Of a stretch of 42,616 nucleotides of DNA, positions 21,400 through 41,402 are shown in pieces. The position numbers and the translations under genes are program-made. The number at the start of each line of letters is the position of its first letter. Within the stretch, counting starts at the first letter, position 1. The notes beneath the pieces were generated by a model that had not been told where the DNA came from, did no database searches, and saw only the letters and a list, made by a program, of their open reading frames with translations. The DNA comes from a virus. The stretch spans positions 1 to 42,616 of IMG/VR virus record IMGVR_UViG_3300039098_000013; one strand, given 5' to 3'.

Positions 21400-21529
21400 A
21401 GTGTATTGTTACTTGTCTGATTTCGTCATGGCTTAGTAATTCATACCATGCGCCGTTGTGGTAAACAGTGCCTCCGTTATCCTCTTGCTCGAATGGTAGA
21501 TAATACTCACCTTCTTCTGGTATTCTCAT
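21398..21529 (-). CDS. Hypothetical 43-aa protein
   Basis: ATGA overlap with the upstream ORF. Sequence is MRIPEEGEYYLPFEQEDNGGTVYHNGAWYELLSHDEIRQVTIH. Confidence 0.35.
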   Translation of the reverse strand: MRIPEEGEYYLPFEQEDNGGTVYHNGAWYELLSHDEIRQVTIH

Positions 21530-21948
21530 AACTTAAATACTCTAACTTTACCGCCTGAACCTGAATCTCTTGTCTTGGCGTAGTTAACAGCATCTTTGGC
21601 ATTGCATCCAAAATCCATCGCAGCAATAGCCCAATCAGAACCGCTACCAATGGCGTCGTTATTGATTAACTTCTGCTTCCATAGTGTACCATCACTCTCA
21701 ACACCGCAACGGTATGCGATCCCATCATCAATTGTAATTGCTCCAGCGTCAGGTATTAACTTAGAGCTACCAGTTGAGTATGCATCAATCAGTAAGTCTT
21801 CATCACAAAGAGCGCCGCACAGAAAGAACATAACTCCATTCACCTTTCTGTACTTTATACTTTTATCGTTAACTATTAACGAACCTCTTGTTGTCCTGCT
21901 TTCCACCGCGATTTCCTTATCTTTGTGGTTGTACGCGATAGTAGTAAT
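21526..21948 (-). CDS. HslV / proteasome-beta-like Ntn-hydrolase (putative threonine peptidase), apparently starting at ATT
   Basis: The in-frame extension upstream of the track's GTG reads (I)TTIAYNHKDKEIAVESRTTRGS, followed by CGALCD and AIGSGSDWAIAAMDFG. An in-frame TAG lies 4 codons upstream, and no ATG/GTG/TTG lies before the Thr-Thr. Confidence 0.55.
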   Translation of the reverse strand: MTTIAYNHKDKEIAVESRTTRGSLIVNDKSIKYRKVNGVMFFLCGALCDEDLLIDAYSTGSSKLIPDAGAITIDDGIAYRCGVESDGTLWKQKLINNDAIGSGSDWAIAAMDFGCNAKDAVNYAKTRDSGSGGKVRVFKL

Positions 21949-22279: not shown

Positions 22280-22504
22280 TTAAATTTCATTCAAAGCAAG
22301 TAATTCAACATCATCATGATCTGTTGATCTTTCTAGTAGTGGTGTGATTTCATTGTGAGCCATCCCTCTAGCGCAGATAACCAAGTCATCAGCGCTTAGC
22401 GGTAACCATGATTTAATGTTCATTACACCATTCCAATAACTGTACTTTCCAGTGTTGTTATTGTGTGCCATTTTTGCGCTTACGAAATATGTTCTTTTAA
22501 TCAT
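22280..22504 (-). CDS. Hypothetical protein (start moved to the ATG with RBS aaggtgtataaaATG)
   Basis: The track ORF 22280..22528 begins at TTG. The internal ATG at 22504 has a clear Shine-Dalgarno sequence. Confidence 0.5.
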   Translation of the reverse strand: MIKRTYFVSAKMAHNNNTGKYSYWNGVMNIKSWLPLSADDLVICARGMAHNEITPLLERSTDHDDVELLALNEI

Positions 22505-22898
22505 TTTATACACCTTAATTTTAAACAATAAGTATCACTAGACCCCTTCTTGCATGGATGGGGAATTGATATCGTTAATCTACACAACAGTAATCAGGCA
22601 ACCGTTCACAATCCGTGTTGGTGGTCGAATCCATATACCATGCAATAAAGCCTGTTTATCTCGGGTCAAAAAGTCGTGTGTAGCGATCAGTTAAATTGTT
22701 CGGGTTTCGTTTACTGGGAAAGCCCGCTATAAAGACAGGCTGATTGGAAGTGGCGATTGATAGGCAATAAAAAAGAGCTTAGGCGGAATCTATTTAGAGG
22801 TAGTGCAAGCTGGCGTAATGATGGAAACGTAGCTTCTCTTAATAGACCCTGTCTAAACTCTTTCGTATCATCAGGCACTACTCCGAATCAACCTAGTC
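22505..22898 (-). ncRNA. Candidate structured non-coding RNA(s) or long structured leader (~390 nt)
   Basis: No credible ORF on either strand, visibly more G+C than its neighbours, and driven by the promoter at 22899-22926. Several hairpins and long-range complementarities are present, plus two internal U-tracts (A-runs at 22769-74 and 22668-72 on plus). Confidence 0.45.
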
Positions 22899-22926
22899 AT
22901 TATATAACAACTAGGCGATTATGCAA
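22899..22926 (-). promoter_or_regulatory. Strong sigma70-like promoter TTGCAT-16-TATAAT, -10 embedded in a 6-bp inverted repeat
   Basis: Minus strand reads TTGCATaatcgcctagttgttaTATAATgactagg. Inverted repeat CCTAGT(22892-97)/ACTAGG(22910-15) brackets the -10. Confidence 0.6.
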
Positions 22927-22934
22927 AACTTTGG

Positions 22935-23225
22935 TTATCTCGGAAACTCATTAATGTTATTTGTTAGGCTTGTTAGCTCCAAACTTAAATCAATAGCCCA
23001 TACTCTTTCAACCCAGCTATCACCAGTCATATACATTGACCATATGAAGTAATCATTATGCGCCTTTGATAGTAATATCTCTTCTTCACCCTTACCTTCA
23101 TTAATCACTTTAGCTACTTTAACTAATATTTTCCGCTTGTCTCGCTTTCTCTGAATTACTATAAATCCACCAGCTTTGATATCTTTAACAAGTACGCACA
23201 TATTCAATGAGTTTAACTCGATCAT
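22935..23225 (-). CDS. Hypothetical protein
   Basis: 96-aa ORF (ATG at 23225; the track uses GTG at 23228). Confidence 0.5.
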   Translation of the reverse strand: MIELNSLNMCVLVKDIKAGGFIVIQRKRDKRKILVKVAKVINEGKGEEEILLSKAHNDYFIWSMYMTGDSWVERVWAIDLSLELTSLTNNINEFPR

Positions 23226-24184: not shown

Positions 24185-24295
24185 TTAATTTGATAATCGT
24201 TTGTACCTATCAATCATCTAGATTGAGAAGATTTAAACGATTGGAGTCTATTCCATTTCAGGCATAGCATTAACTCAACAAACGAGGAGATAGTG

Positions 24296-24607
24296 ATGAA
24301 AAATAACAACGGTTACACACCAGCATATCCATTAACTAATGAGCAGATTGACCACTGTGAGCGTGGTGGTGATTATTCAGGAATGACTAAGCGGGAGATG
24401 TTTGCAATGAATGCCCCTGAGATGCCACAGTGGTTTGAGCGTCAATGGTCACAGCTTAATTATGATAATAAAGATTACTTCAATAACTTTCATGATGAGT
24501 TTGCACCTATATGCCCAACAACAACCAGTGAAATACTTCCAGCTGGTAGCGCTGCCCTAATGAAGGCGTGGCGATTCGGTTACGCTGACTTAATGCTGGA
24601 GGATTAA
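24296..24607 (+). CDS. Hypothetical protein
   Basis: RBS gaggagatagtgATG; 103 aa. Confidence 0.55.
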   Translation: MKNNNGYTPAYPLTNEQIDHCERGGDYSGMTKREMFAMNAPEMPQWFERQWSQLNYDNKDYFNNFHDEFAPICPTTTSEILPAGSAALMKAWRFGYADLMLED

Positions 24608-24610
24608 TAA

Positions 24611-24715
24611 ATGAACATTCAGCAACGATTCGCAAAACTAGAAAAACAACGCAACCCTAAGTGGTATGTAAATCGACACATTGCACATTTGATGAATAAA
24701 TTTAAGCGAGGTTAG
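24611..24715 (+). CDS. Hypothetical basic 34-aa peptide
   Basis: MNIQQRFAKLEKQRNPKWYVNRHIAHLMNKFKRG, packed 3 nt after the previous stop. Confidence 0.3.
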   Translation: MNIQQRFAKLEKQRNPKWYVNRHIAHLMNKFKRG

Positions 24716-24716
24716 T

Positions 24717-24830
24717 ATGTTTATCACAGAAGAAATGAGCGGGTTCTTCCACAGTATGGTTTACATGACAATCTTTGGCGCGGTTGTTTGGGGATTTAAT
24801 CACCTTTGTATGATGGGAGTGTTTGCATGA
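24717..24830 (+). CDS. Hypothetical 37-aa membrane peptide
   Basis: MFITEEMSGFFHSMVYMTIFGAVVWGFNHLCMMGVFA has one hydrophobic helix. It overlaps the next start (ATGA). Confidence 0.3.
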   Translation: MFITEEMSGFFHSMVYMTIFGAVVWGFNHLCMMGVFA

Positions 24831-25132
24831 AGATGAGTGATGTATTTGAAGGCAAGGTTATATCTCATGATGGTATGCACCTGCTAAACGGGTCTAGAGA
24901 GATTAGGCTAGAGTATTCAGATGGATGTAAGCTGGCTGACTTTGGTAACAAAAAACAATCAGACCATGCAGCTGTCGCAATTAACAACCATGACGCATTA
25001 GTTGATGCGCTTGAGTTCTGCGTCAGTGAGATGAAGAATTACGACTTTATGTGTGATGAAACAAAATGTGACGCTGTAATTAAGCTTGGTGATATAGAAA
25101 AGTTATTAGCCAAAGCAAAAGGTGAATCATAA
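24827..25132 (+). CDS. Hypothetical protein
   Basis: 101 aa starting at ATG 24827 (MKMSDVFEGK...). The track uses an upstream TTG. Confidence 0.5.
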   Translation: MKMSDVFEGKVISHDGMHLLNGSREIRLEYSDGCKLADFGNKKQSDHAAVAINNHDALVDALEFCVSEMKNYDFMCDETKCDAVIKLGDIEKLLAKAKGES

Positions 25133-25278
25133 TGGGCGCTAAACACAGAGGTAAGGTGCAAGACAAAGAGCGCGCTAAACTTATATCTAAACGTGAGCAG
25201 ACTCGTCGGTTTAACGAGAAGTCAGATGAGTTTGTTAAGTTAGTTATGGGGATGTCTAGTTATGCGCAATGCAGCTAA
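25132..25278 (+). CDS. Hypothetical basic 48-aa protein
   Basis: TAATG overlap with the previous gene; MGAKHRGKVQDKERAKLISKREQTRRFNEK... Confidence 0.35.
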   Translation: MGAKHRGKVQDKERAKLISKREQTRRFNEKSDEFVKLVMGMSSYAQCS

Positions 25279-25411
25279 TGATTTATTTGATTTGTTTACG
25301 CTAGTGGTTGTTGTTGGTGCGGTTGTGGCTATCGTCTACGCCGCCAATAATGCTGAGTTTAGTAATTACTTGACGGAGATTAAACATGCGATTTCTGATT
25401 ACTTTCTTTAA
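25262..25411 (+). CDS. Hypothetical 49-aa membrane peptide
   Basis: MRNAANDLFDLFTLVVVVGAVVAIVYAANNAEF... has one TM helix. Confidence 0.3.
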   Translation: MRNAANDLFDLFTLVVVVGAVVAIVYAANNAEFSNYLTEIKHAISDYFL

Positions 25412-25444
25412 TATTTTAGTTATGACGATTGTGGGGTTAGTGTC

Positions 25445-25645
25445 GTGAAGAATAATAAGCAAGTTAAGCAGATGATATGTAATGCGGTACATAATCACTT
25501 TAATGGTCAGTGCGGGTCAATATGGTGGGAGCACGGCGGAGTTATTGTCGATGGTGCTTACGATGAAGAGTCTGCATTTATGATAGACCAAGGTGTTGTA
25601 TCTATCGACGGTAACGGTGACTTAATCGCAACGAGTAAGGGTTAA
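25445..25645 (+). CDS. Hypothetical protein (GTG start)
   Basis: 66-aa ORF-track entry. The start codon is uncertain. Confidence 0.4.
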   Translation: MKNNKQVKQMICNAVHNHFNGQCGSIWWEHGGVIVDGAYDEESAFMIDQGVVSIDGNGDLIATSKG

Positions 25646-25647
25646 TT

Positions 25648-25770
25648 ATGAATAACGGTGATGAGTTTCTACAAATACCAGTAGTGGTAATAGGTGCAGC
25701 CTTAGCAGTGTTAACAGGGTTGTTTGTAGCTATGGCGGTTTGTGGTGATAGTGGGGTTAGTGATGAGTGA
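25648..25770 (+). CDS. Hypothetical 40-aa membrane peptide
   Basis: MNNGDEFLQIPVVVIGAALAVLTGLFVAMAVCGDSGVSDE has one TM helix. Confidence 0.3.
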   Translation: MNNGDEFLQIPVVVIGAALAVLTGLFVAMAVCGDSGVSDE

Positions 25771-25951
25771 AATTAAGCATGCAGTAAAGCGCGGTGCAGT
25801 AATGGCATCGCTAGAAGCACCAAGCCATAGGTTAACTAGATTCGTATATAAAATAACAAACAACCCATACAGCCATTCAAAGTTATTACATGTAGCTTGG
25901 CATAATTCATTTTACGATGAATGCAAAAGAATAGGGCGAGGTATTAGATAA
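25763..25951 (+). CDS. Hypothetical protein
   Basis: ATG at 25763 (MSEIKHAVKRG...) overlaps the previous stop; 62 aa. Confidence 0.45.
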   Translation: MSEIKHAVKRGAVMASLEAPSHRLTRFVYKITNNPYSHSKLLHVAWHNSFYDECKRIGRGIR

Positions 25952-25956
25952 CAATT

Positions 25957-26205
25957 ATGCTTGATGTTCACAACCTAAAGATAATGCCAGAGTATTTTAA
26001 TAGAGTGCTAGACGGTAGTAAGAAGTTTGAAATAAGAAAGAATGACCGAGACTTTAAGAAAGGTGATACTGTAATTCTTAATGAATTCAATGATGGTAAA
26101 TTTACTGTAAGGTCGATACTTGCAAATATTGGATACGTTTGTGATTACATGCAGAATGATGGCCACGTAGTATTCTCACTAATCGAGCCTGAAATTGAAC
26201 AATAA
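25957..26205 (+). CDS. ASCH-fold protein (DUF3850 family)
   Basis: HNLKIMPEYFNRVLDGSKKFEIRKNDRDFKKGDTVILNEF matches the DUF3850/ASCH signature. Confidence 0.8.
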   Translation: MLDVHNLKIMPEYFNRVLDGSKKFEIRKNDRDFKKGDTVILNEFNDGKFTVRSILANIGYVCDYMQNDGHVVFSLIEPEIEQ

Positions 26206-26209
26206 AACT

Positions 26210-26229
26210 AGCCCCTAATTAAAGGGGCT
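26210..26229. terminator. Hairpin terminator at the convergent junction
   Basis: agcccct-aattaa-aggggct, with T-rich flanks on the minus side (agttttattg). Confidence 0.55.
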
Positions 26230-26248
26230 ATTTGTTATAATGTAACAG

Positions 26249-32859: not shown

Positions 32860-32881
32860 AAAAAACCCCGCGTTAACGGGG
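32860..32881 (-). terminator. Rho-independent terminator separating early genes from the packaging/head operon
   Basis: Minus strand reads CCCCG-ttaacg-CGGGG followed by TTTTTT. Confidence 0.6.
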
Positions 32882-32903
32882 CTTGGGTTATCTTTTGCTA
32901 ATA

Positions 32904-38678: not shown

Positions 38679-38707
38679 AAGCCCAGTTATTAGCTGGGCT
38701 TCTTTTT
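38679..38707. terminator. Bidirectional terminator between the lysis cassette and the convergent dcm gene
   Basis: aagcccag-ttattag-ctgggctt followed by cttttt; the minus side is followed by tttcgtttat. Confidence 0.7.
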
Positions 38708-39560
38708 ACGATAATTCCCTAAAGAAATGTGTAGTAGTTCTTATATCCCACCCGTTACCGACCATCAATTCAGCCTGCCGTTGAGATACACAATCCAAAT
38801 AATCATCGGGAAACCCAGCCAGCCGGCATAGCTCATTTTTAGTTGGCTTTCTTAACTTTCCATTAGGTGTTTCAACGTAGTTACCATTCCATGACGCATA
38901 CTGCCTGGCGGTCATTGTTATTCCTTTATCGCCCTCCCTGTTAACCCAGGAGTATTTCTTTTTTGTTTGAAATTCTCCGTTCTTTTCCCACCACTTATGC
39001 CACCCATCGCTCATTGTATTTTCAGCTGATGACATATCCATGCAATCAGTAAAGCAGATATCACTATCGTCTGGAGTGTCTAGCGGAAAGTTTGCCCAAT
39101 AGTTTCTAGGCCTTGAGCATGGCGATGAGTGCTTTGCATCGTGAAAGAATGGCTCAACACCAACATATTCAGTAATTACATCCATGTGTTCACTCTTCAT
39201 CTTTACGTTTTCCAGCATGAACTTAACTGATTGGTTAACTGATTTTATGTGATTTAGAATATCGGCGAACACAAAGAACAACACCGATCGTGAATCATCA
39301 AATGCAAGTTGCTTTCCTGCATAACTAAACCCCTGGCATGGGCTTCCAGCTATCAGCAAATCAAGACTTGACCAGTCAATATCCCACTCTCTCCACTTGG
39401 TCACGTCCCCTAGCTGAATTATATCTGGCCAGTTTTTTGATATAACTTTTTGACAGTTCTTCTCAAACTCACTTGAATAGTGGTTATTTACAGAAACACC
39501 AGCGTTGTGAAGTGACTGAGCTCCACCTTCCATGCCGGCGAATAAATCGAGTACATTCAT
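38706..39560 (-). CDS. dcm: DNA (cytosine-5)-methyltransferase
   Basis: Motif I VLDLFAGMEGG, motif IV GSPCQGFS and motif VI FMLENV. Confidence 0.9.
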   Translation of the reverse strand: MNVLDLFAGMEGGAQSLHNAGVSVNNHYSSEFEKNCQKVISKNWPDIIQLGDVTKWREWDIDWSSLDLLIAGSPCQGFSYAGKQLAFDDSRSVLFFVFADILNHIKSVNQSVKFMLENVKMKSEHMDVITEYVGVEPFFHDAKHSSPCSRPRNYWANFPLDTPDDSDICFTDCMDMSSAENTMSDGWHKWWEKNGEFQTKKKYSWVNREGDKGITMTARQYASWNGNYVETPNGKLRKPTKNELCRLAGFPDDYLDCVSQRQAELMVGNGWDIRTTTHFFRELS

Positions 39561-40476: not shown

Positions 40477-40896
40477 TTATTCATCGAGATTTATACCTTG
40501 GTTAGCTGCGAATGCGTAAATAAGCTCAATCATTTCACTCATCCACTTAACCGACTCGCGACTAGTTGACGCGCCAAGTAATACCATTTGGTTGGAGTTT
40601 GGGTCTTGTGCCAGCTTGGCTTCACCGTTTAATGATGCTGAGAATATGTCTTTCCAATTCTCACTAGTTAGTAACTCCTGCTTAATCGTGCCGTCAGGGT
40701 ATCTCACAGCCCACTCTATTCTTTTTGATACCGTTGCAAGGATAGCCCATAGTTTCGCGTTCTGAGATAGCTTGCGCGTCGATTCCTGCACTGTTACGAC
40801 CATCGGATTCGAGCCAACTGGCTCAATCTGGTTAACCATTGCCATTGCGTTCTGTTTTATTGCTTCTGAGTAGATAAAGAATCGTTGTGGCTTCAT
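40477..40896 (-). CDS. ninB: NinB/Orf-family recombination protein
   Basis: RKLSQNAKLWAILATVSKRIEW, ENWKDIF, VLLGASTSRESVKWMSEMIELIYAFAANQGI. Confidence 0.7.
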   Translation of the reverse strand: MKPQRFFIYSEAIKQNAMAMVNQIEPVGSNPMVVTVQESTRKLSQNAKLWAILATVSKRIEWAVRYPDGTIKQELLTSENWKDIFSASLNGEAKLAQDPNSNQMVLLGASTSRESVKWMSEMIELIYAFAANQGINLDE

Positions 40897-41402
40897 TTCA
40901 TTGAGTCCCGATCGATTAAGTGCACTGATTGCTTAACCGGCGATAGTGGATCGAATATAAATACCACCGAGCCTTTGTTATTTCCGTTTACTGGCTTACC
41001 TGTTTCGGCATTGATGAAAGATAATCGCCCTGAGATAAAGTGGCACTCGGTGCAGTTTTCGAATGCCAACTTAAACCACTTAACCGATGTGTCAGCAGGA
41101 ATTAGCATTACAACTGGTATGCATGACTCTTTTGCTATATCCCTGCACATCATGACCCATGGCATAATATTACTGTACGGGGGATTGCAGAATACAGCCC
41201 CAGAAAGAAATGACGCCTGATCTCTATTGAATGCACTATCTTCTTTTGTGCAATACAGCCCACATAGTGAATTCTTATCGCTCGCAGCTAAGTCATACGC
41301 AAATTCAAACCGCTCATTGTAATAATCAAATACAAACTTAGGAGTCTGCCATAGGTCTTTAATTTCTGCTGCTGTGTTGGATTTATGTTCTGTGTTCATC
41401 AT
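40893..41402 (-). CDS. dam: DNA N6-adenine methyltransferase (phage Dam family)
   Basis: WQTPKFVFDYYNERFEFAYDLAAS and the catalytic FCNPPYS motif. Confidence 0.85.
   Translation of the reverse strand: MMNTEHKSNTAAEIKDLWQTPKFVFDYYNERFEFAYDLAASDKNSLCGLYCTKEDSAFNRDQASFLSGAVFCNPPYSNIMPWVMMCRDIAKESCIPVVMLIPADTSVKWFKLAFENCTECHFISGRLSFINAETGKPVNGNNKGSVVFIFDPLSPVKQSVHLIDRDSMK

Follow-up and report, generated by a model that had tools for sequence, protein, structure and literature searches.

The accessory island of IMG/VR virus record IMGVR_UViG_3300039098_000013, whose 42,616 nucleotides constitute the window analysed here, contains a gap of 430 bp (positions 22505-22934, minus strand), and nowhere else in this neighbourhood was DNA similarity to other phages detected. 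The ORFs that overlap the gap are all short (65 aa at most), and both the absence of a credible gene and the raised G+C content remarked upon in the initial annotation hold: G+C is 0.43-0.44 in the gap and 0.34-0.38 in the flanks, and the GC skew flips sign. The stretch also proved to be structured, as had been claimed, with folding of the sense strand at z = -2.76 and of the antisense strand at z = -1.57. We have identified a promoter followed by three modules, U1, U2 and U3, which are combined differently between phages, and then the ribosome-binding site (RBS) of a 74-aa gene (Table 1).

Table 1 Features of the non-coding gap and its borders, in window coordinates
Feature	Position	Strand	Details	Basis
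Sigma-70-type promoter	22899..22927	-	-35 TTTGCA 22927-22922; 17-nt spacer; -10 TATAAT 22904-22899	10/12 match
Inverted repeat CCTAGT/ACTAGG	22892..22915	.	flanks -10; putative operator	repeat found; operator role conjectural
U1	22763..22892	-	~130-nt pseudoknotted RNA; 5' GUUGAUUCGG; predicted start site G22892; ends in U-tract	
U1 pseudoknot stem a	22875..22881	-	GUAGUGC; partner a' 22800-22806	nine complementary versions
U1 long helix b, 5' strand	22836..22868	-		RNAalifold and pair counts, MAFFT alignment A5
U1 apical loop (type-a U1)	22812..22824	-	conserved CCAUCAUUACGCC	alignments
U1 pseudoknot stem a'	22800..22806	-	GCACUAC; partner a	same tests as a
U1 long helix b', 3' strand	22767..22799	-	leads into U-tract	same alignment evidence as b
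U6 tract and AUUGCC	22763..22774	-	straight after helix b'; terminator-like 3' end	CTTTTTTATTGCC conserved
U2	22688..22726	-	hairpin CGGG(C)UUUC...GAAACCCG (22726-22701), then conserved GAACAAUUUAAC	stem covaries
U3	22518..22685	-	doubly pseudoknotted domain 22685-22541; conserved tail UAGUGAUACUUAUUGUUUAAAAU 22540-22518	model R1
U3 H0, 5' strand	22677..22683	-	CUACACA; partner 22580-22586	pairing and covariation
U3 H1, 5' strand	22663..22667	-	GACCC; partner 22541-22545; crosses H0	covariation
U3 junction H1/H2	22655..22662	-	GAGAUAAA; GAUAAA invariant	alignments
U3 H2, 5' strand	22650..22654	-	CAGGC; partner 22595-22599	pair counts
U3 P2, 5' strand	22638..22643	-	GCAUGG; partner 22552-22557; crosses H2 and H0	pair counts
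U3 hairpins H3, H4	22608..22633	-	H3 UGG 22633-22631 / CCA 22621-22619; H4 ACA-CGGAU-UGU 22618-22608	
U3 H2, 3' strand	22595..22599	-	GCCUG	pair counts
U3 junction H2/H0	22590..22594	-	AUUAC, invariant	alignments
U3 H0, 3' strand	22580..22586	-	UGUGUAG	as for 5' strand
U3 P2, 3' strand	22552..22557	-	CCAUGC	pair counts
U3 H1, 3' strand	22541..22545	-	GGGUC	covariation
RBS and start of 74-aa gene	RBS 22516-22511, ATG 22504	-	RBS AAGGUG	begins 2 nt past U3 tail

Distribution and mosaicism

Altogether, 96 phage records match the gap (93 Vibrio and 3 Pseudoalteromonas; 84 records in an earlier search), each at one place, always in an ORF-free gap and in the orientation of the flanking genes. The hosts of these phages are all gammaproteobacteria. 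The genes flanking the element are unrelated from phage to phage, and the 6-kb neighbourhood has no near-identical match by megablast. In several loci the element sits in accessory islands together with methylases, HNH nucleases and small genes without assigned function. Homologous loci carrying element modules are referred to below by L-numbers (L001, L114 etc.). A pattern search across representative genomes of 185,579 species produced 22 matches, of which two were true, the pattern being strict, so that divergent copies may have escaped; these two lie on a 37-kb and a 7.5-kb contig, both from metagenome-assembled genomes. Plasmids gave zero matches to the element. Judged from these sequence comparisons, the modules are swapped among marine phages, beside unrelated genes, and are essentially confined to phages. 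Some carriers have other modules instead: a second type of U3 in L003, L224, L136 and L162, a different 3' module in L007-L009, and different first modules in K30 and BS5.

Promoter and U1

The promoter, first described as TTGCAT-16-TATAAT and equivalent to TTTGCA-17-TATAAT, is one of only four minus-strand sites within 19 kb with a match this good. A promoter of the TTTGCA/TATAAT type is found at the same place in most homologues, and GUUGAUU, the conserved RNA 5' end, follows its -10 box at a distance of 7 nt (8 in one locus). The inverted repeat reported around the -10 box is indeed there and is a possible operator; the repeats surrounding the promoters of homologues differ in sequence (CCCCAC...GTGGGG, CCCCATTTT...AAAATGGGG).

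U1 was modelled on 12 seed sequences, with 5 divergent members outside the seed; the latter (L062, L162/L205, L393, L425) retain both helices. With covariance model R2, the sense strand reaches 118.9 bits at 22892-22759; sense-strand model scores run from 100 to 128 bits, as opposed to 27-34 bits for antisense self-matches. The predicted fold is an H-type pseudoknot in which the long helix b/b' of 16-18 bp is crossed by the 7-bp stem a/a'. On MAFFT alignment A5, 11 of the 16 pairs of b/b' are changed on both sides; it is 94.2% paired (76.2% in shuffles, 22-63% in slid controls), and the covariation score of 0.620, compared with 0.267 after shuffling, was reached by 0/500 shuffles. Conserved U·G pairs of this helix would be A·C mismatches on the opposite strand, which places the sense strand under selection. 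The TAGAC-agg-GTCTA hairpin proposed in the initial annotation lies within one strand of helix b and is not conserved.

Stem a/a' is the pairing GAGGTAGTGC/GCACTACTCC that had been picked out by eye, and it covaries, 22881-22875 pairing with 22806-22800. It occurs in nine sequence versions, each of them complementary (7/7 Watson-Crick pairs, or six plus one G·U). As shuffled sequences often reach 7 bp, a free search for a/a' helices of this length allowing G·U is uninformative, and a cross-pairing test was used instead: when the a and a' segments, as identified per lineage, are combined between lineages, a mean of 3.9 pairs form and none of the 72 cross-pairs reaches seven.

At the 3' end of U1 the stable, covarying helix stops 0-2 nt before the conserved U6-7, as in intrinsic terminators, but the loop is ~70 nt long and holds a hairpin and strand a' where a compact loop (~3-8 nt) would be expected; because of this large loop a simple terminator scan misses the U1 end. 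CTTTTTTATTGCC is kept in both U1 types despite their differing stems, and the same tail trails a canonical small terminator hairpin in L114.

U2 and U3

U2 is a small hairpin, and its stem, noted at the outset as CGGGTTTC...GAAAGCCCG (22726-22701), covaries in a few lineages: GGG/CCC is replaced by CGC/GCG in L002 and L015 and by CGG/CCG in L393. This piece is by itself common to many V. breoganii phages. The AGCCUGU/ACAGGCU stem said to close it exists, although its second arm lies at 22735-22741 and not at 22733-22739, and it is poorly conserved, its 7 bp here dwindling to 4-6 imperfect pairs in L001, L031 and L393. It overlaps and competes with helix H2 of U3 and could be an alternative conformer.

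The third module, U3 (~165 nt), is predicted to form six helices (H0, H1, H2, P2, H3 and H4) in a nested double pseudoknot that ends just ahead of the next RBS. The homologue set comprises 35 distinct sequences, and the one copy that covariance model R1 detects within the window lies at 22670-22522 (128.8 bits). A helix of 7-12 bp between the two H0 regions is found in 35/35 homologues, at the homologous position in all but a few; on the structure-blind alignment A7, 10 of its 12 pairs are changed on both sides and 88% are paired. Double changes affect 7/8 pairs of H1 on one alignment and 6/7 on the other. In H2, CAG/CUG is invariant and the next two pairs covary, about one-third of the sequences being unpaired there. 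P2, which the initial annotation had recorded as GCATGG/CCATGC, is 100% paired in 24 sequences, contains one covarying column (UA 13, GC 7, AU 4) and lengthens to 7-9 bp with lineage-specific sequences. Taken together on a structure-blind alignment of 34 sequences, H0, H1 and H2 are 87.3% paired versus 66.8% (slid controls 29-45%), with a covariation score of 0.519 versus 0.184 (0/500 reach 0.519). For the set H1, H2, P2 and H3 the values are 90.6% versus 74.4% in 26 R1 matches, which were drawn from metagenome and genome scans and include a few duplicates of seed sequences. The helices covary strongly on alignments made blind to structure, one of the points on which the first description had made its RNA reading depend. 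In 26 sequences inspected, the suggested CCCC/GGGG hairpin is not maintained; its GGGG(UC) pairs instead with GACCC at 22667-22663, forming H1.

The H4 loop contains an invariant GGA on a stem that appears as ACA/UGU, AAA/UUU, AUA/UAU or UCA/UGA. Pairing between the GGAU loop and the CAUCC strand has one compensatory change (L062, GGAG/CUCC), and several sequences break the fourth pair. The invariance of the U3 junctions is in part an effect of ascertainment, since GATAAACAG was in the search pattern, although it is also present in five lineages found by BLAST; likewise, the patterns that collected the homologues partly produce the invariance of GAUAAACAG and CUGAUUAC, and the same caveat applies to AUUAC.

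Three U-rich strings on the RNA strand had been interpreted as the ends of successive units. The first is the U-tract after b', the second (UUUAUUGC, 22649-22642) is a non-conserved junction inside U3, and the third is the conserved tail of U3 and belongs to that module. The reading as promoter-driven, structured RNA survives, while the division into three tandem small RNAs gives way to U1, U2 and U3.

Coding status and neighbouring genes

Among the listed records, those of the Nahant collection, vB_VnaS-L3, BS5 and 14E30.2 have the annotation 'none' for the homologous stretches, whereas the K-phage records and 199E37-1 have short 'hypothetical protein' calls beneath the match. Intact genes were looked for in the homologues and none was found. 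Alignments of the homologues carry indels of 1, 2 and 5 nt, that is, not multiples of three, and a protein-coding gene or pseudogene was rejected, as no reading frame is conserved, indels break the frame and substitutions compensate across helices. A 5-codon mini-ORF in the U3 tail (ATG/GTG, four codons, TAA) is present in many sequences and was judged coincidental because several lineages are without the start codon and no ribosome-binding site is conserved with it.

In 10/17 listed loci an ORF of at least 35 aa begins no more than 25 nt from the end of the nhmmer match to U3. Other phages have unrelated genes downstream of U3 (methylase, HNH endonuclease, scaffold, adaptor and various small ORFs), which excludes a leader specific to the 74-aa gene; a gene-specific leader or riboswitch was rejected more generally, with no one gene family or pathway consistently downstream. 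A terminator-like hairpin follows U3 in L114, L006 and L115, in the latter two with a fresh promoter behind it. Small homing-type HNH genes come after the element in two lineages only. A conserved protein partner was sought with tblastn, using eight neighbouring window proteins against all loci, and rejected, the matches being scattered; an HslV-like peptidase recurs in five loci. No reverse transcriptase or RuvC/HNH effector domain of the fitting family is present among the window neighbours, as would be expected for the non-coding RNA of a retron or other reverse transcriptase or for an IscB/TnpB guide RNA. Tandem Repeats Finder detected no tandem repeats or iterons in the region, where direct repeats do not exceed 12 nt and have two copies each; an antitoxin RNA of a type III toxin-antitoxin system and a CRISPR-like array were rejected as tandem direct repeats of one unit were not found.

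Overall, we are highly confident that the gap is a genuine conserved structured RNA locus. In its predicted organisation the locus is self-contained and driven by its own promoter, and it encodes two non-coding RNAs with intricate pseudoknots, U1 and U3.

Comparison with known RNA families

No Rfam 15 family matched anywhere in the window at gathering thresholds, the families including riboswitches, ribozymes, sRNAs, introns, tmRNA, RNase P and 6S as well as C4, GOLLD/ROOL/HEARO, EAR, Qrr and CsrB. With E-values of up to 10, the interval 22300-23100 gave merely four chance-level matches to eukaryotic snoRNAs and miRNAs. ARAGORN found no tRNA or tmRNA in the window, in line with the initial annotation, which had recognised no known riboswitch, tRNA or tmRNA. 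Relative to Rfam, the predicted U1 and U3 are two new RNA families.

GOLLD, ROOL and HEARO resemble the locus in having elaborate covarying folds, in occurring in phages or mobile elements and in having no consistent neighbour gene; the present locus, modular and of lesser size, is equipped with a conserved promoter of its own, is so far limited to phages of marine gammaproteobacteria and lacks a match to these families in Rfam. From viral metagenomes in IMG/VR, 10,006 candidate structured RNAs have been catalogued (PMC10690425), and some unnamed ones precede DNA adenine methyltransferase or capsid genes, as the element does in some of its loci; the catalogue gives such candidates no function or architecture.

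A terminated, promoter-proximal phage transcript is known to act as an sRNA in Shiga-toxin phages, where StxS is produced from PR'-tR' (PMC7547250). Like U1, the lambdoid PR'-tR' transcripts (lambda 6S; StxS) begin at a strong host-type promoter as a structured RNA of ~130-190 nt that ends in a terminator-like helix and U-tract, ahead of a long untranslated leader and genes. The element differs from them in lying within accessory islands of the structural gene run and not between Q and the lysis genes, and in that its terminator helix forms part of a pseudoknot. Homology to the lambda PR'-6S leader, indicated by eye by the collinear blocks GGTTRATTCG, GTAGTG, ACTACC and GATTCCGCCTA, was rejected by nhmmer profile, covariance model and a shuffled Smith-Waterman control, the blocks not being above chance.

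Proposed mechanism

Tentatively, as the likeliest of the readings considered though with less than even confidence, we propose from the sequence features a two-part mechanism that would combine a terminated sRNA, U1, with a cis-acting read-through leader, U3. Host RNA polymerase would fire the promoter unaided, and most transcripts would stop at the b/b' helix and its U-tract, leaving a discrete, stable sRNA of ~130 nt whose conserved single-stranded 5' end and apical loop may be available to a conserved host RNA or protein. Such a product would resemble the short lambdoid PR' transcript that is ended at tR' and doubles as StxS in Shiga-toxin phages. Read-through transcripts, together with late ones arriving from upstream, would include U2 and U3, with U3 serving as the folded 5' leader of whatever accessory gene comes next. 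It could act in cis by processing, stabilising or gating translation of the message, alone or via a conserved host factor; the downstream genes being unrelated, it would sense nothing specific to them.

Several points count against this two-part scheme. Where transcription starts, whether it ends at the U-tract and whether it continues beyond are deductions from sequence. The putative terminator has the large loop described above, and the window offers the 5' end and apical loop of U1 no target above chance. Neither U2 nor U3 has its own promoter, and efficient termination of U1 would mean that they are poorly expressed from the U1 promoter. A strictly cis-acting role is weakened by loci in which U3 is not beside an ORF. 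Moreover, the fold of U3 exceeds the needs of a stabilising leader, which indicates a more specific activity, such as catalysis or recognition of a ligand or protein.

Alternative explanations

The HDV-type ribozyme fold is a nested double pseudoknot (P1, P2, P3, P4), and among its hallmarks are a short L3 with P1.1, a G·U at the cleavage-site end of P1 and a catalytic C in J4/2. The order of strands in U3, H0a-H1a-H2a-H2b-H0b-variable hairpin-H1b, reproduces the HDV order P1-P2-P3-P3'-P1'-P4-P2', with H0 and H1 crossing and covarying. U3 might then be a self-cleaving ribozyme of a new kind, or some other RNA that catalyses or senses a ligand autonomously. The locus would in that case be an RNA-processing cassette, with the polycistronic transcript cut or switched by U3 at a point between U1/U2 and the gene downstream. 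The invariant GAUAAA, AUUAC and GAA junctions and GGA loop, a hairpin that varies in length as P4 does, a conserved inner helix of 3 bp and a downstream gene that is not fixed all fit such a role, as does a place between co-oriented phage genes, a frequent site of small ribozymes; HDV-like theta ribozymes occur in phages, at intergenic locations (PMC10879173). The counterpart of L3, however, measures ~55 nt and contains one strand of P2 and two hairpins (H3, H4), H0 is closed at its outer end mostly by U-A and not G·U, U3 is about twice the size of HDV-like ribozymes, the sequence names no cleavage site, and no Rfam ribozyme or riboswitch, the HDV family included, matched even at E-values of up to 10. 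A common-metabolite aptamer, and with it a riboswitch, is further disfavoured by the near-absence of the element from bacterial genomes. On balance, we regard a ribozyme or sensor as unlikely. Rather improbable, too, is control in cis of transcription of the downstream late structural operon, whether by a promoter-proximal attenuator that a phage antiterminator overcomes, as in lambda PR'-tR'/Q, or by an RNA akin to HK022 put or Bacillus EAR, in which the RNA itself renders RNA polymerase terminator-resistant. In every locus a long series of co-oriented structural genes lies downstream of the element (the adaptor and tail genes in this phage, those for scaffold and capsid in L002, L003, L006, L008 and L009), and in L001 and L010 the element is close to the end of the genome. 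With Ant, Erf and RusA, the window phage is lambdoid-like, the strong promoter, 130-nt terminated RNA and long untranslated leader mirror lambda Q-PR'-6S-tR'-S, and the late region is punctuated by terminators (32884-32863, 26230-26209 and 21399-21382), so that some antitermination is likely. The put and EAR RNAs share with the locus a structured RNA that is promoter-proximal or within the operon, upstream of long operons, and needs no specific gene. Against such control, no Q-family protein was found by Pfam/PHROG matches among the tested neighbours or in the stretch preceding the terminase genes, the element has no conserved protein next to it, and its likeness to lambda 6S did not exceed chance. 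The element lies inside the structural run and not at its head, with terminase, portal and capsid genes upstream in this phage, and U3 is followed by terminator-like hairpins in L006, L114 and L115 and by new promoters in L006 and L115. A processive antitermination RNA should precede its terminators, whereas here the terminator-like structure of U1 comes before U3, the most complex domain; EAR had no match in the Rfam search.

The modules could also act in trans, each as an RNA in its own right that binds or imitates some conserved component of the host (candidates being CsrA, Hfq, RNase E, RNA polymerase or a defence nuclease) for takeover or counter-defence, their place before ORFs being incidental in a compact genome. 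They shuffle independently among unrelated phage backbones without a conserved phage protein partner, so the common denominator would be the host or the RNA itself; residence in accessory islands with methylases, HNH nucleases and small genes and the restriction to gammaproteobacterial hosts point the same way. The SELEX ligand of CsrA is RUACARGGAUGU, and H4, whose 3-bp stem covaries and whose loop of 4-5 nt always includes GGA, carries in ACA-AGGA-UGU what we take to be the core of that ligand. CsrA/RsmA leader hairpins share the GGA in a short loop and the 3-bp stem, and a GGA-containing RBS is often downstream of the element; they differ in that H4 is a single such hairpin, ~100 nt from the RBS, and its loop may rather contact the invariant UCC of CAUCC within the molecule. 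GGA occurs three times in 391 nt, in a loop only at H4, and this lack of enrichment excludes a CsrB-type CsrA sponge. In addition, most loci have no terminator following U3, which would not be freed as a discrete RNA unless processed, and we consider a purely trans-acting role improbable. Far less credible is conservation at the level of DNA, as a replication origin, packaging site or recombination hotspot, or as the remnant of a decayed protein gene. The region is mosaic and exchanged among phages, inverted repeats flank the promoter, and some records place small hypothetical ORFs beneath the match. Yet compensatory changes preserve long-range helices, pseudoknots included, U·G and G·U pairs fit one strand, sense and antisense model scores are widely separated, iterons are lacking, and the indels disregard reading frames.

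A bolder and rather doubtful reading would make U3 a new class of catalytic or sensor RNA (HDV topology, ~165 nt) and U1 a new class of pseudoknotted phage sRNA, forming together with alternative modules swappable RNA-only cassettes. If so, these cassettes would process or gate the transcripts of accessory genes, or disarm a conserved host factor or defence.

Significance

Phage genomes are usually annotated protein by protein, and the listed GenBank records of carriers leave this non-coding stretch empty or fill it with short hypothetical calls; yet similarity at the DNA level among these otherwise unrelated phages was detected in no other part of the accessory island. Its predicted RNAs fold as intricately as known ribozymes and riboswitches and offer RNA biologists two well-defined new families with alignments and testable helices. 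For phage biology, they are RNAs with a possible part in host takeover or gene control, open to experiment in the Nahant and oyster-farm Vibrio phage collections; cultivable carriers are Vibrio phages 1.131.O and 1.135.O, with Nahant hosts, and vB_VnaS-L3, with V. natriegens. Should U3 be catalytic or ligand-sensing, it would represent a new class; should U1 act on host targets, the idea of the terminated transcript as sRNA would reach beyond lambdoid coliphages.

Within the window, no pairing targets above chance were found for the 5' end or apical loop of U1.

The promoter and its predicted ORF-free transcript

The gap (22505-22934, ~430 bp, read on the minus strand) encodes a structured phage non-coding RNA that fits no described family. 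It lies in an accessory island, as stated in the initial annotation; the island (~21.2-26.4 kb) is placed between the capsid gene and the head-tail adaptor, in a phage of lambdoid-like character (Ant, Erf, RusA, terminase, portal, Mu-F-like head protein and major head protein). The reported lack of credible ORFs was borne out, all overlapping ORFs being short (≤65 aa), as was the raised G+C content (0.43-0.44 vs 0.34-0.38 around); GC skew changes sign at the gap. The promoter is present and, with 10 of 12 positions matching, is among only four minus-strand sites of that quality in 19 kb; a repeat scan places its -10 within the inverted repeat CCTAGT/ACTAGG, as noted before. Folding is better than in shuffled controls for the sense strand (z = -2.76) but not for the antisense strand (z = -1.57). 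The first reading had recognised no known RNA class, and neither the Rfam scan that it proposed (gathering and permissive thresholds) nor ARAGORN gave a match; none of the described RNA families tested for membership fits the locus.

In many homologous loci (L002, L004, L007-L009, L011, L015, L016, L136, L162), G+C-rich inverted repeats flank the -35 and spacer of the promoter and vary by lineage (CCCCAC...GTGGGG, CACCCAC...GTGGGTG, CCCCATTTT...AAAATGGGG, CCCACC...GGTGGG), whereas in the window CCTAGT...ACTAGG is placed around the -10. From their sequence these repeats look like candidate operators.

Features of the RNA locus and terminators of the window
Feature	Position	Strand	Remark
ORF on one side of gap	23228-22935	minus	97 aa
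ORF on other side of gap	ATG 22504	minus	74 aa
Promoter	-35 TTTGCA 22927-22922; -10 TATAAT 22904-22899	minus	17-nt spacer; 10/12 match
U1	22892-22763	minus	promoter-proximal RNA module
a/a'	22881-22875 with 22800-22806	minus	
b/b'	22868-22836 with 22799-22767	minus	16 pairs, RNAalifold on plain MAFFT alignment
U2	22726-22688	minus	hairpin CGGG(C)UUUC...GAAACCCG, then conserved GAACAAUUUAA
U3	22685-22518	minus	multi-helix domain and tail
H0	CUACACA 22683-22677 with UGUGUAG 22586-22580	minus	first seen in repeat scan
H1	GACCC 22667-22663 with GGGUC 22545-22541	minus	double changes at 7/8 pairs (26 U3-model matches)
H2	CAGGC 22654-22650 with GCCUG 22599-22595	minus	three pairs invariant, two partly covarying
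P2	22643-22638 with 22557-22552	minus	100% paired (26 U3-model matches)
H3		minus	small hairpin of U3 (26 U3-model matches)
H4	22618-22608	minus	3-bp stem (ACA/UGU, AAA/UUU, AUA/UAU, UCA/UGA); loop with invariant GGA
Consensus terminators	32884-32863; 26230-26209; 21399-21382		

Distribution and modularity

Sensitive blastn with the gap plus 100-nt coding flanks matched 84 phage records, all alignments lying within the non-coding part at 70-79% identity. The gap alone matched 96 (93 Vibrio and three Pseudoalteromonas phages), at a single place per record and in constant orientation; the surrounding 6 kb had no near-identical megablast match in the same collection. At ten loci inspected, the match sits in an ORF-free gap of ~400-700 nt, co-oriented with its neighbours, except for a few very short annotated ORFs in phages K30 and 199E37-1. 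Scanning IMG/VR, metagenomes and a single genome of each species for sequence patterns brought in more loci. Among 185,579 species, 22 pattern hits included only two true U3 copies, on metagenome-assembled-genome contigs of 37 kb and 7.5 kb; 72,556 plasmids gave no match.

All-against-all comparison of the gaps resolved three blocks, combined differently between loci. U1, with its promoter, is common to the window, 1.135.O, vB_VnaS-L3, 199E37-1, 1.177.O and 2.095.A; U2 plus U3 to the window, 1.131.O and 1.132.O; U2 alone to the window and many V. breoganii phages; and U3 alone to the window, the K phages, HS2 and BS5, where it stands 3' of other promoter-proximal structured units. Neighbouring genes vary by locus (DNA methylases, HNH endonucleases, a nucleophile aminohydrolase, many small unknown ORFs), none of the window's proteins consistently has its gene near the element in other loci, and the ORFs 3' of U3 in other phages are unrelated proteins, an ORF of at least 35 aa beginning ≤25 nt past the end of the nhmmer U3 match in 10 of the 17 loci listed. 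The locus is modular, essentially confined to phages and independent of any particular neighbour gene.

Alternative modules also exist. A second U3 type (after U2 in L003, L224, L136/L231 and L162/L205) keeps the GAGACC...GGUCUAAUGAUA ends around a large, different interior; in 199E37-1, 1.177.O and 2.095.A (L007-L009) U1 is followed by an unrelated structured block of ~300 nt; and K30 and BS5 (L004, L006) begin with different promoter-proximal hairpin-plus-U-tract units. Taken together, they point to a wider family of RNA cassettes that can replace one another. In L114, L006 and L115, U3 is succeeded by a terminator-like hairpin, with a new promoter in the latter two. In L114 (~9090-9030) and L006 (3165-3290) the terminator is small and canonical, and its tail, TTTTTTATTGCCTGC, is the string found elsewhere 3' of the long U1 helix; a fresh TTGAC-type promoter comes next in some loci. 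This common tail may mark a junction at which modules recombine.

The promoter-proximal module U1

The promoter is kept in twelve diverse copies of U1. A conserved GUUGAUU lies 7 nt past the -10 (8 nt at a single locus), though the bases between differ, which predicts a start at G22892 and a conserved single-stranded 5' end. The long helix b/b' abuts a conserved U6-7, after which comes AUUGCC. The helix is 94.2% paired (76.2% in shuffles, 22-63% in slid controls), 11 of its 16 pairs have changes on both sides, and its covariation score is 0.620 vs 0.267. Two positions are conserved U·G wobbles, which the opposite strand would turn into mismatches. The GAGGTAGTGC/GCACTACTCC pairing of the initial annotation proved to be stem a/a', which covaries across nine sequence versions (GUAGUGC, GUCGUGU, GUGGUGA, GUGAAGC, GUGGUAG, GUGAAGG, GUGAAAG, GUCGAAG, GUGGAUU). 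Every version complements its own a'; with the a' of other lineages the mean is 3.9 of 7 pairs, and no combination attains 7. Since a/a' crosses b/b', U1 is an H-type pseudoknot. In searches with a b/b'-based covariance model, sense-strand matches reach 100-128 bits against 27-34 for antisense ones; the model also finds divergent members 5' of U3 (L062, L425, L393) or of a U2 copy (L162, L205), all of which retain a/a' pairing, again with new sequences. The TAGAC/GTCTA hairpin proposed earlier falls inside strand b and is not conserved.

The downstream modules U2 and U3

The U2 hairpin, pointed out in the first reading, is conserved, with compensatory stem changes in a few lineages (GGG/CCC to CGC/GCG and to CGG/CCG). 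An AAUUUAA motif precedes U3 even at loci lacking this hairpin, so U2 may be an optional 5' extension of U3. Around it, the 7-bp AGCCTGT/ACAGGCT stem exists, with its second arm relocated to 22735-22741, and is elsewhere only partly maintained; it draws on the same ACAGG as H2 and is a possible alternative conformer.

A U3 covariance model from a 15-sequence seed matches the window once (22670-22522, 128.8 bits); phage and IMG/VR loci yield 20 matches, and those from the metagenome and genome scans 26. Over these 26, H1, P2, H3 and H2 together are 90.6% paired (74.4% in shuffles, 25-40% when slid). P2 corresponds to the GCATGG/CCATGC pairing noted earlier, and one of its columns covaries (UA 13, GC 7, AU 4). 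A helix of 7-12 bp occurs in the H0 region of all 35 distinct homologues, at the homologous position in all but a few, and its sequence differs in most lineages. In a structure-blind MAFFT alignment of 34 sequences, H0 (12 pairs, 10 with double changes) is 88% paired, H1 (seven pairs, six with double changes) 86% and H2 87%; the set reaches 87.3% vs 66.8%, with slid controls at 29-45%, and a covariation score of 0.519 vs 0.184. Covariation, which the initial annotation had named as a check, is thus present in both U1 and U3, neither score being reached by any of 500 shuffles. As in U1, the strand is fixed by conserved wobbles, here two pairs that close H0 on its inner side.

The strands run H0a, H1a, H2a, [P2a, H3, H4], H2b, H0b, a variable hairpin, P2b, H1b, so that H0 crosses H1, while P2 crosses two helices, H2 and H0. 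The junction sequences GAUAAA and AUUAC do not vary, partly from being in the search patterns, yet the five BLAST-found lineages also have them. Neither the CCCC/GGGG hairpin nor the second U-rich string UUUAUUGC, once read as an RNA end and here located in the H2-P2 junction, is conserved. The conserved tail after H1 (22540-22523) can often be read as a mini-frame of start codon, four further codons and TAA (window GTG ATA CTT ATT GTT TAA; BS5 ATG ACA CTT ATT ATC TAA); the start codon is absent in several lineages, and the homologue tails share no conserved ribosome-binding site.

Proposed function and alternatives

The locus is a conserved transcription unit whose sense-strand RNA structure is under selection; that it is a DNA element or a pseudogene is very improbable. 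We tentatively favour a two-part reading, in which U1 is a terminated sRNA and U2/U3 a cis-acting read-through leader. Host polymerase would make U1, and most transcripts would stop at the helix and U-tract, yielding a discrete pseudoknotted sRNA that exposes its conserved 5' end and loop. Transcripts that read through, and late ones, would bear U2 and U3 as a folded leader of the next gene, with U3 acting in cis on that transcript. Any partner is probably a conserved host component, because the element occurs on different phage backbones and is accompanied by no partner protein; otherwise the RNA would act alone. That the modules are instead purely trans-acting, host-directed RNAs seems distinctly unlikely. 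The nearest precedent for the U1 half is the terminated PR' transcript, which serves as the sRNA StxS (PMC7547250). The likeness to lambda 6S RNA is architectural only; homology was rejected, the sequence blocks seen by eye not being above chance.

A late-operon attenuator or antitermination element is unlikely, if a little less so. A strong terminator, AAGCCCCGTTAACGCGGGGTTT plus a T-run (32863-32884, minus strand), lies directly upstream of the small terminase gene and would fit late transcription under antitermination control; a Q-family antiterminator was not detected among the neighbours tested or in the region upstream of the terminase genes. It is realistically possible that U3 is a more unusual kind of RNA. 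HDV-type ribozymes have the strand order of a nested double pseudoknot (P1, P2, P3, P4), and U3 follows the same order but adds one helix and has a far bigger inner loop, the likeness being topological only; a new ribozyme or sensor is as unlikely as the purely trans-acting RNAs. A published catalogue (PMC10690425), which lists 10,006 candidate structured RNAs of the same metagenomic origin, unnamed and with no architecture or function assigned, may contain fragments of the element.

Genomic surroundings

A block of small plus-strand genes (24293-26205) is inserted into the otherwise minus-strand structural region. It and the capsid gene converge on a terminator that is perfect and bidirectional (TAGCCCCTTTAATTAGGGGCTA, 26209-26230). 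The run of late genes is therefore broken physically, shortly upstream of the RNA locus. The window encodes a small HslV-family or nucleophile-aminohydrolase-like protein (21526-21906, minus strand, 126 aa, phrog_1040); its type is found within a few kb of the element in five other loci (L427, L062 with two copies, L401, L009), and no other neighbour was seen more than twice. The window also has two genes for DNA methyltransferases away from the element (38706-39560 and 40893-41402, minus strand), and in several other phages a methylase directly adjoins the RNA element.
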